IMG/VR virus record: IMGVR_UViG_2711768062_000001
Reading direction: 5' to 3' (one strand)
From: a virus
Taxonomy: Duplodnaviria > Heunggongvirae > Uroviricota > Caudoviricetes
Length of the DNA stretch: 10,603 nt
Both the position numbers and the translations under genes were made by a program. Numbering within the stretch: position 1 is the first letter of the stretch; every line of letters starts with the position of its first letter. This document shows, in pieces, positions 1,771-10,603 of the stretch. The notes under the pieces were generated by a model. That model saw nothing but the letters and a program-made list of their open reading frames with translations. It ran no database searches and had not been told where the DNA came from.

Positions 1771-2127
1771 TTAAAAAATCAGAACGCCGTGCGGCCTCAA
1801 CACCCGAAAAGCTTCTTTAAATCTCTGTCGCAAATCATCACGCCAGGCATCTTTATTCAGCCGTCCATATTTCTTTCCCATCCAGGCGTTATCACCAACA
1901 CGCTCAAGATGCGGAGGGTCTAATACAACCATCGAAAAAGATGCGTCTGCAAATGATAATGCACGAAAATCTGCGATAATGTCAGGGCTGATAATCAAGC
2001 GTCTCCCATTGCGTAATGTGTATCCTTCTTTTCTGATATCGCTAAATATCGCCCGTTCGTCAGACTTATCGAACCAGAACATGCGGCTGCCACAGCACAT
2101 ATCAAGAATGGTTGCCGGTGCACTCAC
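1771..2127 (-). CDS. DNA methyltransferase-like protein, 118 aa, probably truncated by an in-frame TAA (see findings)
   Basis: Translation has an AdoMet-binding-like N-terminus (ILDMCCGSRMFWFD) and a (D/N/S)PP(Y/F/H)-type motif IV (VVLDPPHL) about 60 residues later, the order seen in amino-MTases. Start ATG overlaps the stop of the upstream 140-aa gene (ATGA at 2124-2127), implying translational coupling. Confidence 0.5.
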   Translation of the reverse strand: MSAPATILDMCCGSRMFWFDKSDERAIFSDIRKEGYTLRNGRRLIISPDIIADFRALSFADASFSMVVLDPPHLERVGDNAWMGKKYGRLNKDAWRDDLRQRFKEAFRVLRPHGVLIF

Positions 2128-2546
2128 TGCGCCACGTCCTGAAAATTACCCTGATAGAAAGCCAGTATGCGCTGCATAACTTCGCTCTTCCGGCACTCGC
2201 GACAGATTATGTTTAGGCGACTGTCGTAGCGACGTATTTCTCCGTCAGGTGATGACCAGATAAGGTCCGGATCAACCACAGCAGGTTTCTTCACCTTTGC
2301 CCTCGAGAGTTTTTTGCGGGCGTTTTGCCAGTCCTTACGCGCCTGTTCAGAGGGGAATAACCCGTAGCCGGAGTTGTATACATCGCCACTGGCTACCAGC
2401 TCTCTGGCAAGAACGCTCATCAGATATCTAGTCGCACCTGTTTTAGCTTCCAGTTGCCGTAACGTCTCACGGCCGCTCTGGCGCACGAGTTCCACCACCT
2501 GCCATTTAATTTTTTCCCGCTCTTCTTGTGTAAAAACTTTTGCCAC
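2124..2546 (-). CDS. hypothetical protein, 140 aa, basic, with a possible winged-helix-like segment
   Basis: Long open frame with a GTG start at 2546..2544 preceded by aaGGGGGActt; protein MAKVFTQEEREKIKWQVVELVRQSGRETLRQLEAKTGATRYLMSVLARELVASGDVYN.... No family recognised. Sits between the replication initiator and the MTase-like gene in the same operon. Confidence 0.55.
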   Translation of the reverse strand: MAKVFTQEEREKIKWQVVELVRQSGRETLRQLEAKTGATRYLMSVLARELVASGDVYNSGYGLFPSEQARKDWQNARKKLSRAKVKKPAVVDPDLIWSSPDGEIRRYDSRLNIICRECRKSEVMQRILAFYQGNFQDVAQ

Positions 2547-2586
2547 AAGTCCCCCTTAAAATTACCTCATGACCTGAAATCAACAC

Positions 2587-3552
2587 TTATCCTCTGAAAC
2601 CAGGCGGAATTTCTGTATCCGGTTCAGAAATATGATTAACACAACGCTGTACAGGTGAACGTCCCAGGCGGATGACCAGTTCGTCCCATTTTTCGCGGAG
2701 CTTTGACGGGCTCATGATGTTTTTTACCCAGAATGGATCTCGCTGAATCCGACCAAACATTTCGCAAATTTGTCTGTGGCTTCTGCCATCCAGCATCCGC
2801 ATTGTGCGCACGTCATTGGCCCAGGCAGTCCAGTTAGGCTCTTTTGGTCGCATGATCTCGCCATCATCACTGGCTGCCTGTTCGTAGAGACCCACGATCC
2901 GCCCCCAGATCCACTGCGCACACGCCAAATCCTCCCTGCTACCCCACTGGCGTTTTTTCGCACTAAACACAACCGCGTCGGAGTTCCGGGTTAAAAAATC
3001 CTGTTCAGTCGTCTGCGGGTCCGGTTGCGAAGCTTCCGGACGAAAAGTGTTTTTATTCTCTGTAGTAATCTCTGTTGTATTCTCTGTAAGATCATCAGGC
3101 CATTTTGACCCGATGACATTGGGTCGTTTTGAATCAATGGAGCGTTTCATTTTGACCTCTTCCATCGTGTCATTTTGACCTGATGGAGCGGCGCATTTTG
3201 AACCGATGGATTCGCTCAATTTGCCACCATCTAAAAGCTCGCTCCCATAGTTGATCGTGTAGAAATTGGTCATATCGCGCTTTGATTTATTGAGCTTTTC
3301 ACAACGCAAAAGCCCCAGCGTTTTCAGACTTGCAAACGCGCGCTTTAACGTTGACTCTGACCAGAATGGGAACTGTTCCAGCCATTGTTCCGTTGTGTTA
3401 TAAATCCAGCGAACACCATCACATTCCATGCCGGAGTTGGTATCTCTCAACCAGTAGTGCAGTTGTTGCAAAACAATGGCTTCGTTTAAGCCAATTTTCA
3501 TTGCCAGCTGCGTGTTTATAACCAGTGGGCGTTCAGCAAAAAGAAGGCTCAT
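2587..3552 (-). CDS. phage replication initiator (lambda O-like, two domains with low-complexity linker) containing the putative origin iterons
   Basis: Long ORF; ATG at 3552..3550 preferred (the track's 339-aa form starts at TTG 3606). N-terminal domain ...LVINTQLAMKIGLNEAIVLQQLHYWL...STLKRAFASLKTLGLLRCEKL, then a T/E/N/Q-rich linker, then a Trp-rich C-terminal domain. The linker-coding DNA holds an iteron array (3101-3230), as in the lambda O gene and ori-lambda. Confidence 0.6.
   Translation of the reverse strand: MSLLFAERPLVINTQLAMKIGLNEAIVLQQLHYWLRDTNSGMECDGVRWIYNTTEQWLEQFPFWSESTLKRAFASLKTLGLLRCEKLNKSKRDMTNFYTINYGSELLDGGKLSESIGSKCAAPSGQNDTMEEVKMKRSIDSKRPNVIGSKWPDDLTENTTEITTENKNTFRPEASQPDPQTTEQDFLTRNSDAVVFSAKKRQWGSREDLACAQWIWGRIVGLYEQAASDDGEIMRPKEPNWTAWANDVRTMRMLDGRSHRQICEMFGRIQRDPFWVKNIMSPSKLREKWDELVIRLGRSPVQRCVNHISEPDTEIPPGFRG
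3101..3230. repeat. origin-like iteron array: 5-6 direct repeats of core CATTTTGACC at about 23-bp period
   Basis: Copies start at 3101 (cattttgacc), 3125 (cgttttgaatc, degenerate), 3148 (cattttgacc), 3171 (cattttgacc), 3194 (cattttgaac) and 3218 (caatttgcca, weak). Flanked at 3057-3089 by three TCTCTGT copies at 12-bp period and a short AT-rich patch at 3040-3056. Confidence 0.6.
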
Positions 3553-4054
3553 AATTCCATCCAGCTTTTTGTTGGTATTGCTGTCGATACGCAAGCTTGA
3601 AAGCAATTGCTTTTTCTATAAGTTCGTCAGTTTCACGATCCACTACGGCAGGATCAGCAAAAAGCAGTCCGGACTCCACCACATCGCCATATTCTTTGTT
3701 TAACCCGGCGATCATGCACGTGATGCTTTTTCCGTCAGTAATTTCACGATACAACCTGAAATCACTAATCCGGATAGCCTCCATAATCGCAGGCACTAGC
3801 GCCGTGAACTTTTCACGCTTATCCCTGGTGTCGATAGCCTTCCAGCGTTCGAATATCTTCACTCGATTAACACCAAGCGCTCGCTGATCAACCGCGCCAC
3901 CTTCATCTGTGACACGCTGAACATCGATGTTCGGGCGCTCTTTCAAAGCCCAGAATGCTTCAGTGATTAATATCGTCGCCTGCTCCTGTGTCATTCCTGG
4001 TCGACATATCCAGGCATCCAGAGCCTCACGAGCCTGTTCAGGAGTGATTTTCAT
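3533..4054 (-). CDS. hypothetical early protein, 173 aa, immediately downstream of the cro-like gene (the position occupied by CII/YdaT-type regulators)
   Basis: ATG at 4054..4052 lies 17 nt inside the 3' end of dicC (aacaATGaaaatcactcctgaa), suggesting coupling; protein MKITPEQAREALDAWICRPGMTQEQATILITEAFWALKERPNID.... Function is inferred from position only. Confidence 0.55.
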   Translation of the reverse strand: MKITPEQAREALDAWICRPGMTQEQATILITEAFWALKERPNIDVQRVTDEGGAVDQRALGVNRVKIFERWKAIDTRDKREKFTALVPAIMEAIRISDFRLYREITDGKSITCMIAGLNKEYGDVVESGLLFADPAVVDRETDELIEKAIAFKLAYRQQYQQKAGWNYEPSFC

Positions 4055-4265
4055 TGTTCAACCGCCCCGCCCGCTTCGTCTTACGATATTCATCATAAAC
4101 TTTGGGATCATACTGAAGCTCCCCGCCAGATGCCTCCTGTAGACGCATCGCGCGACCTTCAGGAACCAGTATCCCCCAAGCAGCAACACTTGCCAGCCTC
4201 ACTCCTGCGGCATTGGCAAGCTTTGTTTTGCTGCCAAAAAAAGTAATTGCGTCAACTTTAAGCAT
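4038..4265 (-). CDS. dicC: DicC, Cro-like small DNA-binding protein (75 aa from the ATG; 76 with the preceding TTG)
   Basis: MLKVDAITFFGSKTKLANAAGVRLASVAAWGILVPEGRAMRLQEASGGELQYDPKVYDEYRKTKRAGRLNNENHS. Divergent from dicA across an 80-bp operator region; SD GAGGGGG 5 nt upstream of the ATG. Size and sequence match my recollection of Qin DicC. Confidence 0.7.
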   Translation of the reverse strand: MLKVDAITFFGSKTKLANAAGVRLASVAAWGILVPEGRAMRLQEASGGELQYDPKVYDEYRKTKRAGRLNNENHS

Positions 4266-4278
4266 CAAATCCCCCTCT

Positions 4279-4296
4279 TGTTAGACTTTTCTAACA
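4279..4296. promoter_or_regulatory. operator: perfect inverted repeat TGTTAGA-cttt-TCTAACA in the dicC/dicA intergenic region
   Basis: Read directly from the sequence: 7-bp arms, 4-bp spacer. Overlaps the -10 and predicted start site of the dicC promoter. A degenerate second copy (aattaga-atta-cctaact) lies at 4328-4345, abutting the dicA start codon. Confidence 0.6.
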
Positions 4297-4323
4297 TTAT
4301 TGTGCGCGGGATACCTAAGTCAA
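4296..4323 (-). promoter_or_regulatory. candidate sigma70 promoter for dicC (-35 TTGACT, 16-bp spacer, -10 AATAAT on the minus strand)
   Basis: On the minus strand, TTGACT is at plus coordinates 4323..4318 and AATAAT at 4301..4296. The predicted start falls inside the 4279-4296 operator. Confidence 0.4.
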
Positions 4324-4345
4324 GAAAAATTAGAATTACCTAACT

Positions 4346-4753
4346 ATGGATACAAGAACCCTGGGCCAGCGAGTTCTGGCGCGACGAAAAGAATTACGCT
4401 TAACACAACGAGAAGCCGCGCGCCTCGCTGGAGTTGCTCACGTCACAATTTCACAATGGGAAAGAGACGAAACCCAGCCAGTCGGAAAACGATTGTTTGC
4501 TTTAGCGGATGCTCTGAAGTGCTCACCTACATGGCTAATGTTTGGTGACGAAGACAAGGCACCAGTGCCTGCACAAGAACTTCATGTGGAAACAGAGCTA
4601 ACTCCCAACCACAAAGAATTGATCGAATTATTCGATGCTCTTCCATCTTCCGAGCAGGAAGCCTTGCTGTCTGAAATGCGCGCAAGAGTAGAAAACTTCA
4701 ACAAACTCTTCGAAGAAATGCTTAAAGCGCGTAAAAATAAATCAATAAAATAA
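4346..4753 (+). CDS. dicA: DicA, HTH (XRE/cI-type) repressor of the dicB operon, 135 aa
   Basis: MDTRTLGQRVLARRKELRLTQREAARLAGVAHVTISQWERDETQPVGKRLFALADALKCSPTWLMFGDEDK..., i.e. an N-terminal HTH followed by a C-terminal helical domain. Length, sequence character and context (divergent dicC, dicB operon downstream) match Qin DicA as I recall it. Confidence 0.8.
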   Translation: MDTRTLGQRVLARRKELRLTQREAARLAGVAHVTISQWERDETQPVGKRLFALADALKCSPTWLMFGDEDKAPVPAQELHVETELTPNHKELIELFDALPSSEQEALLSEMRARVENFNKLFEEMLKARKNKSIK

Positions 4754-4788
4754 CATTCTTTTCAAGTGATTAGTTGCGCCCACCCTTT

Positions 4789-4808
4789 TTGTTAGATCAA
4801 TCTAACAA
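4789..4808. promoter_or_regulatory. operator: perfect inverted repeat TTGTTAGA-tcaa-TCTAACAA upstream of the dicB operon
   Basis: 8-bp arms, 4-bp spacer, with the same half-site as the 4279-4296 operator. A degenerate third copy (tgttagg-ttat-tctaaat) at 4826-4843 overlaps the candidate promoter. Confidence 0.6.
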
Positions 4809-5795: not shown

Positions 5796-5853
5796 TTTCT
5801 GGTGACGTTTGGCGGTATCAGTTTTACTCCGTGACTGCTCTGCCGCCCTTTTT
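5796..5853 (+). ncRNA. dicF: DicF small RNA (Hfq-dependent sRNA that represses ftsZ translation), processed from the dicB operon transcript
   Basis: tttctggtgacgtttggcggtatcagttttactccgtgactgctctgccgccctttttaa matches the DicF sequence as I remember it, including the GGCGG...CCGCC stem and U-tract. It lies between ydfC and dicB, after a 340-nt untranslated spacer. Confidence 0.75.
5811..5853 (+). terminator. intrinsic terminator forming the 3' end of DicF (leaky; dicB and ydfD lie downstream)
   Basis: GC stem (ggcgg ... ccgcc) followed by CTTTTT at 5848-5853. Confidence 0.5.
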
Positions 5854-6492: not shown

Positions 6493-8964
6493 ATGAGTAA
6501 AGTCTTTATTTGCGCCGCTATTCCTGACGAACTGGCAACAAGGGAAGAAGGCGCTGTGGCTGTAGCCACAGCCATTGAAGCTGGCGACGAACGCCGTGCT
6601 CGAGCAAAATTTCACTGGCAATTCCTGGAACATTATCCGGCTGCTCAGGACTGCGCTTATAAATTTATTGTCTGCGAGGATAAACCTGGTATACCCCGCC
6701 CTGCCCTCGATTCATGGGATGCTGAATATATGCAGGAAAACCGCTGGGATGAGGAGTCTGCTTCTTTTGTCCCGGTTGAGACTGAATCCGATCCGATGAA
6801 CGTCACTTTTGACAAGCTGGCCCCTGAAGTACAGAACGCTGTCATGGTTAAGTTCGACACATGTGAAAACATCACCGTTGATATGGTTATTAGCGCACAG
6901 GAATTGTTGCAGGAAGACATGGCAACATTCAACGGACATATCGTTGAAGCGTTGATGAAAATGCCAGAAGTTAACGCCATGTATCCGGAGCTTAAGTTGC
7001 ACGCCATTGGGTGGGTTAAGCATAAATGTATTCCTGGTGCTAAATGGCCCGAAATTCAGGCAGAGATGCGCATCTGGAAAAAACGTCGCGAAGGTGGACG
7101 CAAGGAAACCGGAAAATACACGTCTGTTGTTGATCTCGCCCGCGCCAGAGCCAATCAACAGTACACTGAAAATTCAACAGGAAAAATCAGCCCGGTCATT
7201 GCTGCCATTCATCGCGAATACAAGCAGACATGGAAAACACTGGATGACGAACTGGCCTACGCTCTCTGGCCTGGTGATGTGGATGCCGGAAACATTGACG
7301 GCAGCATCCATCGCTGGGCAAAAAATGAAGTTATCGACAACGACCGCGAAGACTGGAAGCGTATCTCGGCATCAATACGCAAACAGCCTGATGCCCTTCG
7401 CTACGACCGCCAAACTATTTTTGGCCTTGTCCGTGAGCGTCCGATCGACATTCACAAAGATCCCGTAGCACTGAACAAATATATCTGCGAATACCTGACG
7501 ACAAAGGGCGTGTTTGAGAATGAAGAAACAGACCTGGGCACTGTTGATGTTCTCAAGTCATCAGAAACACAAACTGATGCAGTGGAAACTGAGGTATCTG
7601 ATATCCCAAAAAATGAAACCGCACCGGAAGCTGAACCATCTGTAGAGCGTGAGGGGCCGTTCTATTTCCTCTTCGCAGATAAGGACGGAGAAAAATACGG
7701 TCGCGCAAACAAACTTTCTGGTCTGGATAAGGCACTGGCTGCTGGCGCCACTGAAATCACAAAAGAAGAATATTTTGCCCGAAAAAATGGCACATACACG
7801 GGCTTACCGCAAAATGTAGATACCGCTGAAGATTCAGAACAACCAGAGCCGATAAAAGTTACCGCTGACGAAGTAAACAAAATTATGCAGGCAGCCAATA
7901 TCAGCCAGCCTGACGCCGATAAGTTGCTTGCTGCATCACGTGGTGAATTTGTTGAAGGGATTAGTGACCCGAATGATCCGAAATGGGTTAAGGGGATCCA
8001 GACCCGCGATTCTGTGAACCAGAACCAGCATGAATCGGAACGGAACTACCAAAAAGCGGAACAAAACAGCCCAAATGCGTTACAAAACGAGCCAGAAACG
8101 AAACAGCCTGAATCAGTGGCGCAACAGGAAGTGGAAAAAGTCTGCACCGCCTGCGGTCAGACCGGCGGCGGCAACTGCCCTGATTGTGGCGCGGTGATGG
8201 GCGACGCAACATACCAAGAAACATTCGATGAAGAGTATCAGGTTGAAGTTCAGGAAGATGATCCGGAGGAAATGGAAGGCGCTGAACATCCACACAAGGA
8301 GAACGCTGGCGGCAATCAGCATCACGATAGCGATAATGAAACTGGCGAGACGGCAGATCACTCAATTAAGGTGAACGGTCATCACGAAATCACATCCACC
8401 AGCAGGACGTGTGACCATCTAATGATCGACCTTGAAACCATGGGAAAAAATCCTGATGCCCCGATCATCTCAATAGGTGCAATATTTTTCGATCCGCAAA
8501 CCGGAGATATGGGACCGGAATTTAGTAAGACTATCGATCTGGAAACTGCTGGCGGAGTCATTGATCGGGACACCATTAAATGGTGGCTTAAGCAATCACG
8601 CGAAGCGCAATCGGCCATTATGACCGATGAAATCCCGTTAGATGATGCACTGTTACAATTGCGGGAATTTATCGACGAAAACTCCGGTGAATTTTTTGTT
8701 CAGGTTTGGGGAAATGGAGCCAACTTCGACAACACGATTTTGCGCCGTTCATACGAACGGCAGGGGATCCCCTGCCCGTGGCGTTACTACAACGATCGCG
8801 ATGTACGCACAATCGTTGAGCTGGGGAAAGCCATAGACTTCGATGCCAGAACGGCTATTCCATTCGAAGGTGAGCGCCATAATGCACTTGATGACGCCCG
8901 TTACCAGGCAAAATACGTTTCAGTTATCTGGCAAAAACTGATCCCGAGTCAGGCTGATTCTTAA
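6493..8964 (+). CDS. ydfE: YdfE, full-length form (823 aa): N-terminal domain of unknown function, acidic low-complexity linker with a C4 zinc ribbon, C-terminal DEDDh 3'-5' exonuclease domain
   Basis: Uninterrupted 2472-nt ORF with GAGG upstream. The N-terminus MSKVFICAAIPDELATREEGAVAVATAIEAGDERRARAKFHWQFLEHYPAAQD matches my recollection of the K-12 YdfE fragment. C-terminal motifs MIDLETMG (Exo I), WGNGANFD (Exo II) and ERHNALDDARYQA (Exo III, His variant); zinc ribbon CTACGQTGGGNCPDCG at about 8143-8200. Confidence 0.8.
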   Translation: MSKVFICAAIPDELATREEGAVAVATAIEAGDERRARAKFHWQFLEHYPAAQDCAYKFIVCEDKPGIPRPALDSWDAEYMQENRWDEESASFVPVETESDPMNVTFDKLAPEVQNAVMVKFDTCENITVDMVISAQELLQEDMATFNGHIVEALMKMPEVNAMYPELKLHAIGWVKHKCIPGAKWPEIQAEMRIWKKRREGGRKETGKYTSVVDLARARANQQYTENSTGKISPVIAAIHREYKQTWKTLDDELAYALWPGDVDAGNIDGSIHRWAKNEVIDNDREDWKRISASIRKQPDALRYDRQTIFGLVRERPIDIHKDPVALNKYICEYLTTKGVFENEETDLGTVDVLKSSETQTDAVETEVSDIPKNETAPEAEPSVEREGPFYFLFADKDGEKYGRANKLSGLDKALAAGATEITKEEYFARKNGTYTGLPQNVDTAEDSEQPEPIKVTADEVNKIMQAANISQPDADKLLAASRGEFVEGISDPNDPKWVKGIQTRDSVNQNQHESERNYQKAEQNSPNALQNEPETKQPESVAQQEVEKVCTACGQTGGGNCPDCGAVMGDATYQETFDEEYQVEVQEDDPEEMEGAEHPHKENAGGNQHHDSDNETGETADHSIKVNGHHEITSTSRTCDHLMIDLETMGKNPDAPIISIGAIFFDPQTGDMGPEFSKTIDLETAGGVIDRDTIKWWLKQSREAQSAIMTDEIPLDDALLQLREFIDENSGEFFVQVWGNGANFDNTILRRSYERQGIPCPWRYYNDRDVRTIVELGKAIDFDARTAIPFEGERHNALDDARYQAKYVSVIWQKLIPSQADS

Positions 8965-9036: not shown

Positions 9037-9288
9037 ATGAGCGAAGTAATCATGATTGTCTCTCCCGGCAAATGGGTATCCGAAGAGCAGTTAATTGCGC
9101 TGAAAGGAATAAAAAAAGGTACGTTAAAAAAGGCCCGGGAAAAATCGTTTATGGAAGGAAGGGAATATAAGCATGTCGCTCATGACGGTATGCCATGGGA
9201 TAACAGTCCATGCTTTTACAACCTGGAAGAAATTGATCGCTGGATTGAGCGCCAGGCATCAGCAAGACCAAGACGTCATCTTACTTGA
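9037..9288 (+). CDS. excisionase-like protein (Xis family), 83 aa
   Basis: Small basic protein directly upstream of the integrase; contains ...EGREYKHV..., reminiscent of the DGREYLFHE segment of lambda Xis. The true start may be the internal ATG (IMIVSP). Confidence 0.6.
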   Translation: MSEVIMIVSPGKWVSEEQLIALKGIKKGTLKKAREKSFMEGREYKHVAHDGMPWDNSPCFYNLEEIDRWIERQASARPRRHLT

Positions 9289-9322
9289 CTAAAAGCCACA
9301 CTAACTAATGAGAGAAGTTGAA

Positions 9323-10603
9323 ATGAAATATCCGACAGGCGTGGAAAACCATGGAGGGAAATTACGTATCTGGTTTGTTTATAAAGGCGTAAGAGTCAGG
9401 GAAAACCTGGGGGTTCCTGACACAGCAAAAAACAGGCGCGTTGCAGGTGAGCTACGCGCCTCTGTTTGTTACGCAATAAAAACTGGTGTTTTCGACTATG
9501 CAAAACAGTTTCCCTCCTCACGCAATCTGGAAAAATTTGGTGAGACTCGACAAGATTTAACCATAAAAGAACTGGCTGAAAAATTTCTGGCACTGAAAGA
9601 AACTGAAGTCGCAAAAACATCACTCAACACATACCGTGCCGTCATCAAAAATATCCTGAGCATAATCGGTGAAAAAAATCTTGCCTCATCGATTAATAAA
9701 GAAAAATTACTGGAGGTTCGTAAAGAGCTACTGACTGGATACCAGATCCCCAAAAGTAACTATATTGTTACACAACCAGGGAGATCGGCTGTAACTGTAA
9801 ATAATTACATGACAAATCTTAACGCCGTGTTCCAGTTTGGTGTTGATAACGGTTACCTGGCAGATAACCCGTTTAAGGGGATCTCGCCATTAAAGGAATC
9901 AAGAACCATTCCGGATCCTCTTTCGCGGGAGGAATTCATCCGTCTTATCGATGCGTGCAGAAATCAGCAAGCCAAAAATTTATGGTGTGTTTCTGTTTAT
10001 ACTGGCGTTCGCCCTGGTGAGCTGTGTGCACTTGGATGGGAGGACATAGATCTGAAAAATGGAACAATGATGATCAGGAGAAATTTAGCAAAAGACCGTT
10101 TCACGGTACCAAAAACACAGGCGGGAACCAATCGGGTCATTCATCTTATTAAGCCAGCAATCGACGCTCTCCGGAGTCAGATGACATTAACGAGACTGAG
10201 CAAAGAGCATATCATTGATGTTCACCTCAGAGAGTATGGCAGAACAGAAAAACATAAATGCACCTTTGTTTTTCAACCTGAAGTGTCAGCGAGAGTAAAA
10301 AATTATGGTGACCATTTTACCGTTGACTCAATAAGGCAGATGTGGGACGCAGCGATAAAACGTGCCGGACTCCGCCATCGAAAATCATATCAGTCGAGAC
10401 ATACTTATGCCTGCTGGTCGCTGACAGCTGGTGCTAATCCGGCATTTATAGCAAACCAGATGGGCCATGCAGATGCGCAAATGGTATTTCAGGTATACGG
10501 AAAATGGATGTCTGAAAACAATAATGCACAGGTAGCTTTGTTAAATACACAGTTAAGCGAGTTTGCCCCAACCATGCCCCATAACGAAGCAATGAAAAAT
10601 TAA
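9323..10603 (+). CDS. tyrosine site-specific integrase (phage integrase family), 426 aa from the preferred ATG (431 aa from 9308)
   Basis: N-terminal arm-binding-like region (KYPTGVENHGGKLRIWFVYKGVRVRENLG) and C-terminal catalytic region with candidate Arg (GVRPGELCAL), His-x-x-Arg (SRHTYACWSL, MGHADAQ) and Tyr (FQVYGKWM) residues. Stop codon at the last three bases of the window. By synteny this is the counterpart of intQ, which is a pseudogene in K-12. Confidence 0.85.
   Translation: MKYPTGVENHGGKLRIWFVYKGVRVRENLGVPDTAKNRRVAGELRASVCYAIKTGVFDYAKQFPSSRNLEKFGETRQDLTIKELAEKFLALKETEVAKTSLNTYRAVIKNILSIIGEKNLASSINKEKLLEVRKELLTGYQIPKSNYIVTQPGRSAVTVNNYMTNLNAVFQFGVDNGYLADNPFKGISPLKESRTIPDPLSREEFIRLIDACRNQQAKNLWCVSVYTGVRPGELCALGWEDIDLKNGTMMIRRNLAKDRFTVPKTQAGTNRVIHLIKPAIDALRSQMTLTRLSKEHIIDVHLREYGRTEKHKCTFVFQPEVSARVKNYGDHFTVDSIRQMWDAAIKRAGLRHRKSYQSRHTYACWSLTAGANPAFIANQMGHADAQMVFQVYGKWMSENNNAQVALLNTQLSEFAPTMPHNEAMKN

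Follow-up and report, generated by a model that had tools for sequence, protein, structure and literature searches.

The 10,603-nucleotide (nt) stretch analyzed here, hereafter the window (IMG/VR virus record IMGVR_UViG_2711768062_000001), is the early region of a lambdoid Escherichia coli prophage. Its minus strand carries a gene for a 321-amino acid (aa) replication initiator (2587-3552; ATG at 3552, stop at 2587-2589), which would be 18 residues longer if translation began at an in-frame TTG at 3606; public annotations take 3552. Inside this gene lie an array of iteron-like repeats (3093-3231), an A+T-rich tract with three 12-bp repeats (3042-3092), and a conserved flank (3013-3041), which together are the candidate replication origin considered here. 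A preliminary description, made from the sequence alone, had placed the repeats in the linker-coding part of this open reading frame and had likened the arrangement to ori-lambda within the O gene. Both points hold: the iterons and 12-bp repeats all fall within residues 108-167, inside a stretch that is disordered in a structural model (residues 86-174), and they have the same place and polarity in the gene as their lambda counterparts.

The iteron array (minus strand) consists of six units of 23 bp (24 bp once) that, read in register, begin at 3093, 3117, 3140, 3163, 3186, and 3209. Repeat search, which returned 23-bp-period families spanning 3093-3224, and autocorrelation bear out the period and copy number described previously (five to six repeats of ca. 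23 bp), with the addition that four units are good (3093, 3140 with its core at 3148, 3163, and 3186) and two are degenerate (3117 and 3209). The 10-nt core, CATTTTGACC, is exact at 3101, 3148, and 3171 and has one mismatch at 3194; outside the array, a single further match with at most one mismatch occurs in the window, at 8616. On the gene strand the core reads RGGTCAAAATG. The autocorrelation at lag 23 is 0.54, compared with a window mean of 0.25 (standard deviation 0.05), and none of 5000 shuffles gave a value as high at any lag. The unit consensus on the gene strand, CATCGGGTCA-AAA-TGACCCGATG, is a 10+3+10 inverted repeat around an A-tract, a property that the preliminary description did not include; because of it, each unit resembles a dimer site. 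A terminator-like hairpin at 3106-3126 (plus strand) was not taken as a terminator, as it is made of two neighboring iteron arms and the T-run of the next core. Rfam gave no RNA family in the origin region, and neither the core search nor autocorrelation found a second repeat cluster of the iteron kind in the window.

The tract that adjoins the array (3042-3092, minus strand) is A+T-rich and purine-skewed, and contains three 12-bp repeats (TACAGAGAATAC on the gene strand, at 3054-3089), scored by Tandem Repeats Finder as period 12 with 2.7 copies. The three TCTCTGT repeats noted earlier at 12-bp spacing were found at 3057, 3069, and 3081 (ACAGAGA on the gene strand); they are three of five copies in the window, where 1.0 would be expected by chance. 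The AT-rich patch noted beside them was also recovered: the G+C fraction is 0.30 across 3040-3079, the least stable 40-mers of the gene begin at 3042-3053, and 3046-3085 is within the least stable 1.5% of the window. The tract has 70% A+T and 64% purine on the coding strand, compared with 72% and 66% in the lambda tract. From its sequence, we propose that it is the DNA-unwinding element. Downstream, the conserved flank (3013-3041, minus strand) was seen on reading the sequence to carry a short inverted repeat, TCCGG (3021-3025)...CCGGA (3037-3041); it also marks the mosaic boundary between varying N-terminal halves and the shared C-terminal half. A 40-nt ACAGAGA tract 97.5% identical to window 3054-3093 was also observed in E. 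coli VL40 (L010:2120-2962), inside an unrelated initiator gene that is annotated "LvrA C-terminal domain-related" and is followed by genes for a DnaC-like ATPase and a replicative helicase. Because of this recurrence, the A+T-rich element seems to be mobile between origin types.

To distinguish constraint on the DNA from constraint on the protein, we aligned 34 distinct alleles, taken from viral contigs, from E. coli genomes, and from a locus of the Citrobacter type; their identity to the window is 70-99.8%. In the folded domains, diversity at third codon positions is three to six times that at positions 1+2 (0.193 vs. 0.032 and 0.220 vs. 0.070), which is the normal signature of protein-level selection. 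Across codons 108-166 (ca. 3230-3030), third-position diversity is 0.043, compared with 0.213 elsewhere, and 20 of 59 third positions are variable, compared with 217 of 262 in the rest of the gene (Fisher p = 4.6e-13). At positions 1+2 of these codons, diversity remains at 0.02-0.07, with no difference from elsewhere (p = 0.34), so that over the origin third positions equal positions 1+2 in conservation and exceed the third positions of the flanking domains fivefold. No stretch of the gene is more conserved than the 12-bp-repeat tract, whose nucleotide diversity is 0.015; DNA-level constraint fades within the flank at 3013-3041, where the third-position trough reaches ca. 3030. The six cores lie in codon phases 0, 2, 1, 0, 2, and 2 and encode unrelated peptides. 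The spread of the cores over three codon phases and the collapse of synonymous-site diversity across them show that it is the DNA that is constrained and that the repeats act at this level.

The suggestion that the gene encodes an O-like initiator stands with respect to its family, its C-terminal domain, and its gene order, but not with respect to its N-terminal domain, which is not of the lambda O type. The protein matches PHROG 391, "replication initiation O-like", with an E value of 1.5e-91 (its residues 17-321 align with positions 11-298 of the 298-position profile), and no Pfam or NCBIfam family was found for it except a 20-residue match to the tail of DnaT. The C-terminal domain (aa 175-297; 2662-3030, minus strand) is homologous to that of lambda O, the part that interacts with P: tblastn aligned residues 170-294 with the corresponding domain of the O proteins of lambda, 933W, and others at 36% identity (E 2e-16), and alignment with lambda O gives 38% identity, with the invariant motifs W..ANDIR.M..DGR.H...C and SP.KLR.KW. 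The N-terminal domain (aa 1-107; 3232-3552, minus strand) is predicted, from a structural model and sequence matches, to be a winged-helix DNA-binding domain. It has no Pfam match to Phage_rep_O (PF04492) up to an E value of 10, whereas lambda O scored 5.7e-36 in the same run, and BLASTP against the N-terminal domain of lambda O showed no similarity. Instead, residues 1-155 resemble the N-terminal portions of phage replication proteins from Hafnia, Pseudomonas, Staphylococcus, and Bacillus (43-48% identity), and the domain itself is shared with the initiators of these phages at 44-48% identity. AlphaFold2, run with a shallow alignment of nine sequences, gave a mean predicted local distance difference test (pLDDT) score of 54 and a layout comprising a helix-strand N-terminal domain (11-85), a disordered stretch (86-174, pLDDT <50) that covers all residues encoded by the repeats, a helical C-terminal domain (180-297, pLDDT 60-86), and a disordered tail. 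In Foldseek searches the nearest folds to the N-terminal domain were those of staphylococcal RepA_N initiators, one of them in a Rep-DNA complex, and of DnaD; these matches are weak (E 0.03-0.1) and, because of the low mean pLDDT of the model, only suggestive. A search of PDB sequences with the initiator returned the DnaT tail and a chance match to YteR, and nothing else.

The N-terminal half of the gene and the repeats travel together as a module. BLAST against E. coli genomes revealed a mosaic junction at nt 497 of the gene (ca. 3056 of the window), in the A+T-rich tract, and C-terminal halves at 86% identity that are joined to other N-terminal halves. Alleles with an HTH_36-type N-terminal domain have a different array at the same position, built from 15-bp-period GTCAAAATCTGACCC or TTGACCCGTCAA units, with a matching trough of synonymous diversity over it. 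Alleles that are 87%, 77%, and 70% identical in nucleotide sequence keep the 23-bp units, and both these units and the ACAGAGA repeats are kept in alleles from E. coli and a Citrobacter/Salmonella-type cluster whose N-terminal domains are 70-88% identical as protein. Further afield, Hafnia phage yong2 and Pseudomonas phage USP_18 have N-terminal domains that are 47-48% identical to that of the window, joined to unrelated C-terminal parts. Their genes contain five and four 23-bp-spaced units, respectively (0 of 5000 shuffles each), followed in both by an ACAGAGA-type tract. The arms of the units change in mirror fashion, from GGTCA..TGACC in the window to GGACA..TGTCC in the Hafnia phage and GGGCA..GCCC-type in the Pseudomonas phage, where the cores, read by eye, are only near-palindromic. 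Such symmetric change of both half-sites is what would be predicted for a dimeric reader with altered specificity. Across the alleles and phages compared, the repeat sequence co-varies with the type of DNA-binding domain in the initiator.

We conclude, with a probability of about 0.85, that a Qin-like lambdoid prophage has its vegetative replication origin at 3013-3231, within the linker-coding part of its initiator gene. By the mechanism that we infer, transcription from a pR-like promoter upstream would provide the initiator, whose N-terminal winged-helix dimers would bind the palindromic 23-bp iterons to form an O-some-like complex. Strain from this complex would then melt the adjoining A+T-rich ACAGAGA-repeat tract, and the lambda-O-like C-terminal domain, together with the tail, would bring in the replicative helicase. 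The helicase might be delivered, via the tail, by the host DnaB-DnaC or restart-primosome machinery, a step to which we give somewhat less than even odds; it is suggested by the lack of P, DnaC-like, and DnaB-like genes together with a tail that copies the C-terminus of DnaT. The module is likely in use, as PhiR42_1, a 48.7-kb lambdoid phage record deposited as "complete", encodes an initiator that is 99.4% identical, with the genes around it in the same order.

Several observations weigh against this conclusion. Our literature search found no replication, binding, or unwinding data on the element. Many carriers are chromosomal prophages and possibly defective. The structural model of the initiator is poor and its fold matches are weak. 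Recent recombination that spread one origin cassette could partly explain the low diversity over the origin; this is insufficient, however, because only third positions are affected. Finally, a group of 290-aa alleles (P0015, P0017-P0021) lacks 31 codons (93 nt) in frame, equal to 23+23+23+24 and corresponding to ca. 3110-3202 of the window, which leaves two units and shows that the array is dispensable for the open reading frame. This loss looks like the product of recombination between iterons, and it parallels the small in-frame ori-minus deletions of lambda. These alleles neither support nor refute origin function.

Three alternative explanations were weighed. The one that survives best, albeit at low odds, is that the element is a fossil origin in a non-replicating module, conserved because the prophage is young or has spread clonally or by recombination. 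The 100% identical copies in many E. coli chromosomes, the alleles without four of the units, and the defective state of the Qin prophage of K-12 all agree with it. Opposed to this are the retention of the units in Escherichia, Citrobacter, and Salmonella alleles that differ by up to 30% in nucleotide sequence, and the presence of the module in a complete phage genome; because the flanks are rich in synonymous change, there has been enough time for decay. About as unlikely is the idea that the units bind the initiator or another phage protein for regulation, such as autorepression, copy control, handcuffing, or incompatibility, while initiation occurs elsewhere. Plasmid iterons do double as copy-control elements. 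Nevertheless, the array directly adjoins the gene's least stable tract, in a lambda-like polarity and with a lambda-like composition, that tract is more conserved than the iterons and co-travels with them in distant phages, and the window has no second repeat cluster of the iteron kind. Last, the notion that the repeats are only a low-complexity protein linker produced by slippage, with no role in cis, has a negligible chance of being right: the region does encode a disordered T/E/N/S/K-rich linker, and the 12-bp period (which gives TEN/TEI/TEN) and the 15-bp period of the HTH_36-type alleles are multiples of three, but 23 bp is not, the phase and synonymous-site data given above exclude a constraint on protein repeats alone (which the preliminary description had listed as a refutation), and the 23-bp spacing and palindromic cores persist in the Hafnia and Pseudomonas phages despite different peptides.

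The C-terminal tail of the initiator (aa 301-321, VQRCVNHISEPDTEIPPGFRG; 2590-2652, minus strand) is predicted to be disordered and matches residues 159-179 of E. coli DnaT, with 15 of 21 residues identical and an identical ...IPPGFRG at the extreme C-terminus. With the full-length DnaT equivalog model, NF002770, the protein reaches 16.3 bits, where the cutoff is 201, and the match covers profile positions 160-179 only. The tail is modular. Its 63 nt recur at 89% identity on other organizer genes found by BLAST, and it also ends Rac YdaU (DUF1376; L001:4120-4977) and an unrelated "phage replisome organizer"; the tail was also noted at L009:1493-2563. We surveyed the 107 viral-contig genes that end in IPPGFRG and have enough downstream sequence. 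They belong to at least five unrelated families of phage replication organizers, and the next gene encodes an IstB/DnaC-like ATPase in 55 of the 107 and DUF977 in 42, with a P or DnaB-like helicase gene in none.

The gene after the initiator in the window is of the DUF977 kind, in agreement with the earlier remark that the 140-aa downstream product does not look like a P- or DnaC-type loader; neither P nor a DnaC-like or DnaB-like gene is present downstream of the initiator, and none of P, DnaC, or DnaB is annotated in the PhiR42_1 genome. Near-identical modules (L005:2473-3213 and 55 viral-contig loci) differ in having or not having the IstB/DnaC-like ATPase gene. Where present, this gene begins 7 nt past the initiator stop; where it is missing, DUF977 begins 41 nt past the stop. 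We considered the tail as a marker of loader-less modules alone and rejected this, because alleles with the DnaC-like gene have it as well. One sister allele (P0036, locus L011) shares the immunity genes, N-terminal domain, linker, and iterons, ends in a lambda-like ...DWNSADGWEDVL tail, and has a Phage_lambda_P gene directly downstream. An initiator found together with DnaC-like and DnaB genes of its own lacks the DnaT-type tail. In E. coli itself, dnaT sits directly upstream of dnaC.

On this basis, we tentatively suggest that the tail couples organizers to a DnaC-type loading system, which would be the host's own where the phage has none. Stated more generally, ...SEPDxxIPPGFRG may be a portable docking peptide that links at least five unrelated organizer families to DnaC-type loading, an idea that we hold with less than even confidence. 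The partner system would conceivably be a phage DnaC paralog or, in loader-less phages, host DnaB-DnaC or the PriA-PriB-DnaT primosome, a proposal no firmer than the docking peptide itself. The partner could equally be PriA, PriB, or single-stranded DNA (ssDNA)-binding protein (SSB). Four points weigh against the coupling: alleles with a phage DnaC-like gene carry the tail too, so that it does not single out loader-less modules; the loci in the survey are related to one another and lack phylogenetic independence; the protein paired with DopC, which contains a DnaT_C-like region, is P-like (PMC5509034); and a 2026 preprimosome structure favors the N-terminal domain of DnaT as the possible recruiter of DnaB/DnaC (PMC13377028). 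The same paper calls the DnaB/DnaC recruitment step unknown (PMC13377028). DnaT lacking residues 154-179 has lower cooperativity in ssDNA binding (PMC4132743). The DnaT structure literature that we searched does not state the contacts of residues 160-179, and the string "PPGFRG" did not occur in the literature searched. If the docking-peptide idea is true, the C-terminal tail of DnaT would couple the restart preprimosome to DnaB-DnaC, or to PriA.

The remainder of the window fits a lambdoid early region. Genes for an integrase (9308-10603), an excisionase (9037-9288), and an 823-aa exonuclease (6493-8964) are followed by the DicF antisense small RNA (5797-5848, plus strand; Rfam RF00039 at 76.7 bits, gathering score 48) and a cI-like repressor gene (4346-4753, plus strand). 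In the exonuclease gene, an autocorrelation of 0.58 at lag 21 was observed at 7976-8130, which encodes an acidic Q/E-rich linker; it was not accepted as a true repeat, as repeat search gave one weak 17-nt pair, and it is probably compositional. In the cI/cro intergenic region lies a pR-like sigma-70 promoter, TTGACT-16-AATAAT (4296-4323, minus strand), recognized by consensus match only and the sole promoter-like site in 2000-4800 in a consensus scan. Transcription from it would drive the P22-Cro-like gene (4038-4268), the cII/YdaT-like gene (3533-4054), and the initiator gene, all on the minus strand, and would cross the origin. The ATG of the initiator sits 20 nt inside the 3' end of the cII/YdaT-like gene (3533-3552 shared), an overlap that suggests translational coupling of the two. 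Beyond the initiator are the 140-aa DUF977 or "Ren-like exclusion protein" gene (2124-2546, minus strand; assigned by family matches), at the slot where lambda has P and then ren, and a 118-aa S-adenosylmethionine (SAM)-methyltransferase reading frame (1771-2127, minus strand). The latter matches Pfam Methyltransf_11/25 only in part and may therefore be truncated; PhiR42_1 annotates the same 357-nt gene. In its gene order, cI / cro, cII-like, O-like, Ren-like, the region agrees with lambda.

Because it encodes DicF, the prophage is assigned from its sequence as Qin-like and not Rac-like. PhiR42_1, for which our literature search found no describing paper, is, judged by the remainder of its genome, an intact relative of the K-12 Qin prophage. 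Many E. coli chromosomes contain 100% identical copies of the segment 2100-4300. Of 5426 complete E. coli genomes, 1391 match at least 80% of this segment and 1849 match at least 80% of the initiator gene.

These results provide a precise origin annotation for a replication module that is mostly "hypothetical protein" in RefSeq. They also describe an O-type initiator that unites a non-lambda DNA-binding domain, a lambda-type C-terminal domain, and a DnaT-type tail, and hence a clean natural exchange of a domain-plus-origin cassette. The origin will be of use in prophage annotation and in predicting incompatibility and immunity of replication modules, and the T/A, A/T, and G/C arm swaps provide natural specificity variants for studies of initiator-iteron recognition. 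The more interesting result, in our view, is the DnaT-type tail and its link to DnaC-type loading or to the lack of a phage loader; if confirmed, the tail-loader association would offer a handle on DnaB-DnaC recruitment in replication restart.

The preliminary description had recommended comparison with the origin regions of Rac, Qin, and lambda-like phages, and of these the lambda-like anatomy matches, whereas the Rac initiator proved unrelated. In K-12, the Rac YdaU-YdaV module occupies the same slot, after racR / ydaS / ydaT, and an active origin, oriJ, has been reported for Rac. YdaU shares the DnaT-type tail, its C-terminus being ...VNTVSLPDSAIPPGFRG, and is followed by the DnaC-like YdaV; beyond the tail, this DUF1376 protein has no similarity to the initiator, and for this reason K-12 Rac is not a direct comparator. 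E. coli DnaT (PDB 2ru8, 6aep, and 9zbt chain D) likewise shares only the tail, as the initiator lacks the DnaT N-terminal domain, acidic linker, and three-helix ssDNA-binding domain; the adjacency of dnaT and dnaC is paralleled by the tail-bearing organizer and DnaC-like gene pairs in 55 of the 107 phage loci. In structure, the model of the N-terminal domain (pLDDT 60-74) comes closest to the RepA_N plasmid initiators of Gram-positive bacteria, such as staphylococcal pSK41 RepA (PDB 4pql, 4pt7, and 5kbj), and to the N-terminal domain of DnaD, at weak E values of 0.03-0.1. The likeness lies in the winged helix and, for RepA, in being a dimeric iteron binder; in addition, "DnaD-like" proteins of Staphylococcus and Bacillus phages are 43-46% identical to residues 3-129 of the initiator. 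RepA_N plasmids, too, carry iterons inside the rep gene. Their C-terminal domains, hosts, and partner proteins differ from those found here.

The closest parallel is lambda. There, the origin lies in the middle of O and consists of four to six intrinsically bent iterons with an A-tract, plus an A+T-rich tract; O dimers bind the bent, A-tract-centered iterons, form the O-some, and unwind the adjoining tract (PMC7466680). As in ori-lambda and its relatives (the 933W/P27 Shiga toxin phages, 82, and phi80), the origin described here is in the middle of the initiator gene, with palindromic iterons, four to six in ori-lambda, that have a central A-tract and 20-24 bp spacing, and with the same order and polarity, from iterons through an A+T-rich purine-skewed tract to the C-terminal domain. 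That domain is homologous to its lambda counterpart, the cro, cII-like, O order is shared, and a pR-type operon crosses the origin. Unlike lambda O, however, the initiator has an N-terminal DNA-binding domain that is unrelated in sequence and is without Phage_rep_O; the iteron core is GGTCAAAATGACC instead of TCCCTCAAAACGAGGGA; three ACAGAGA repeats of 12 bp occupy the A+T-rich tract; P is absent; and the protein ends in a DnaT-type tail instead of ...DWIYGVDL. The origin is thus of the ori-lambda type, with a replaced DNA-binding domain and iteron set, and is in itself ordinary for a lambdoid prophage.

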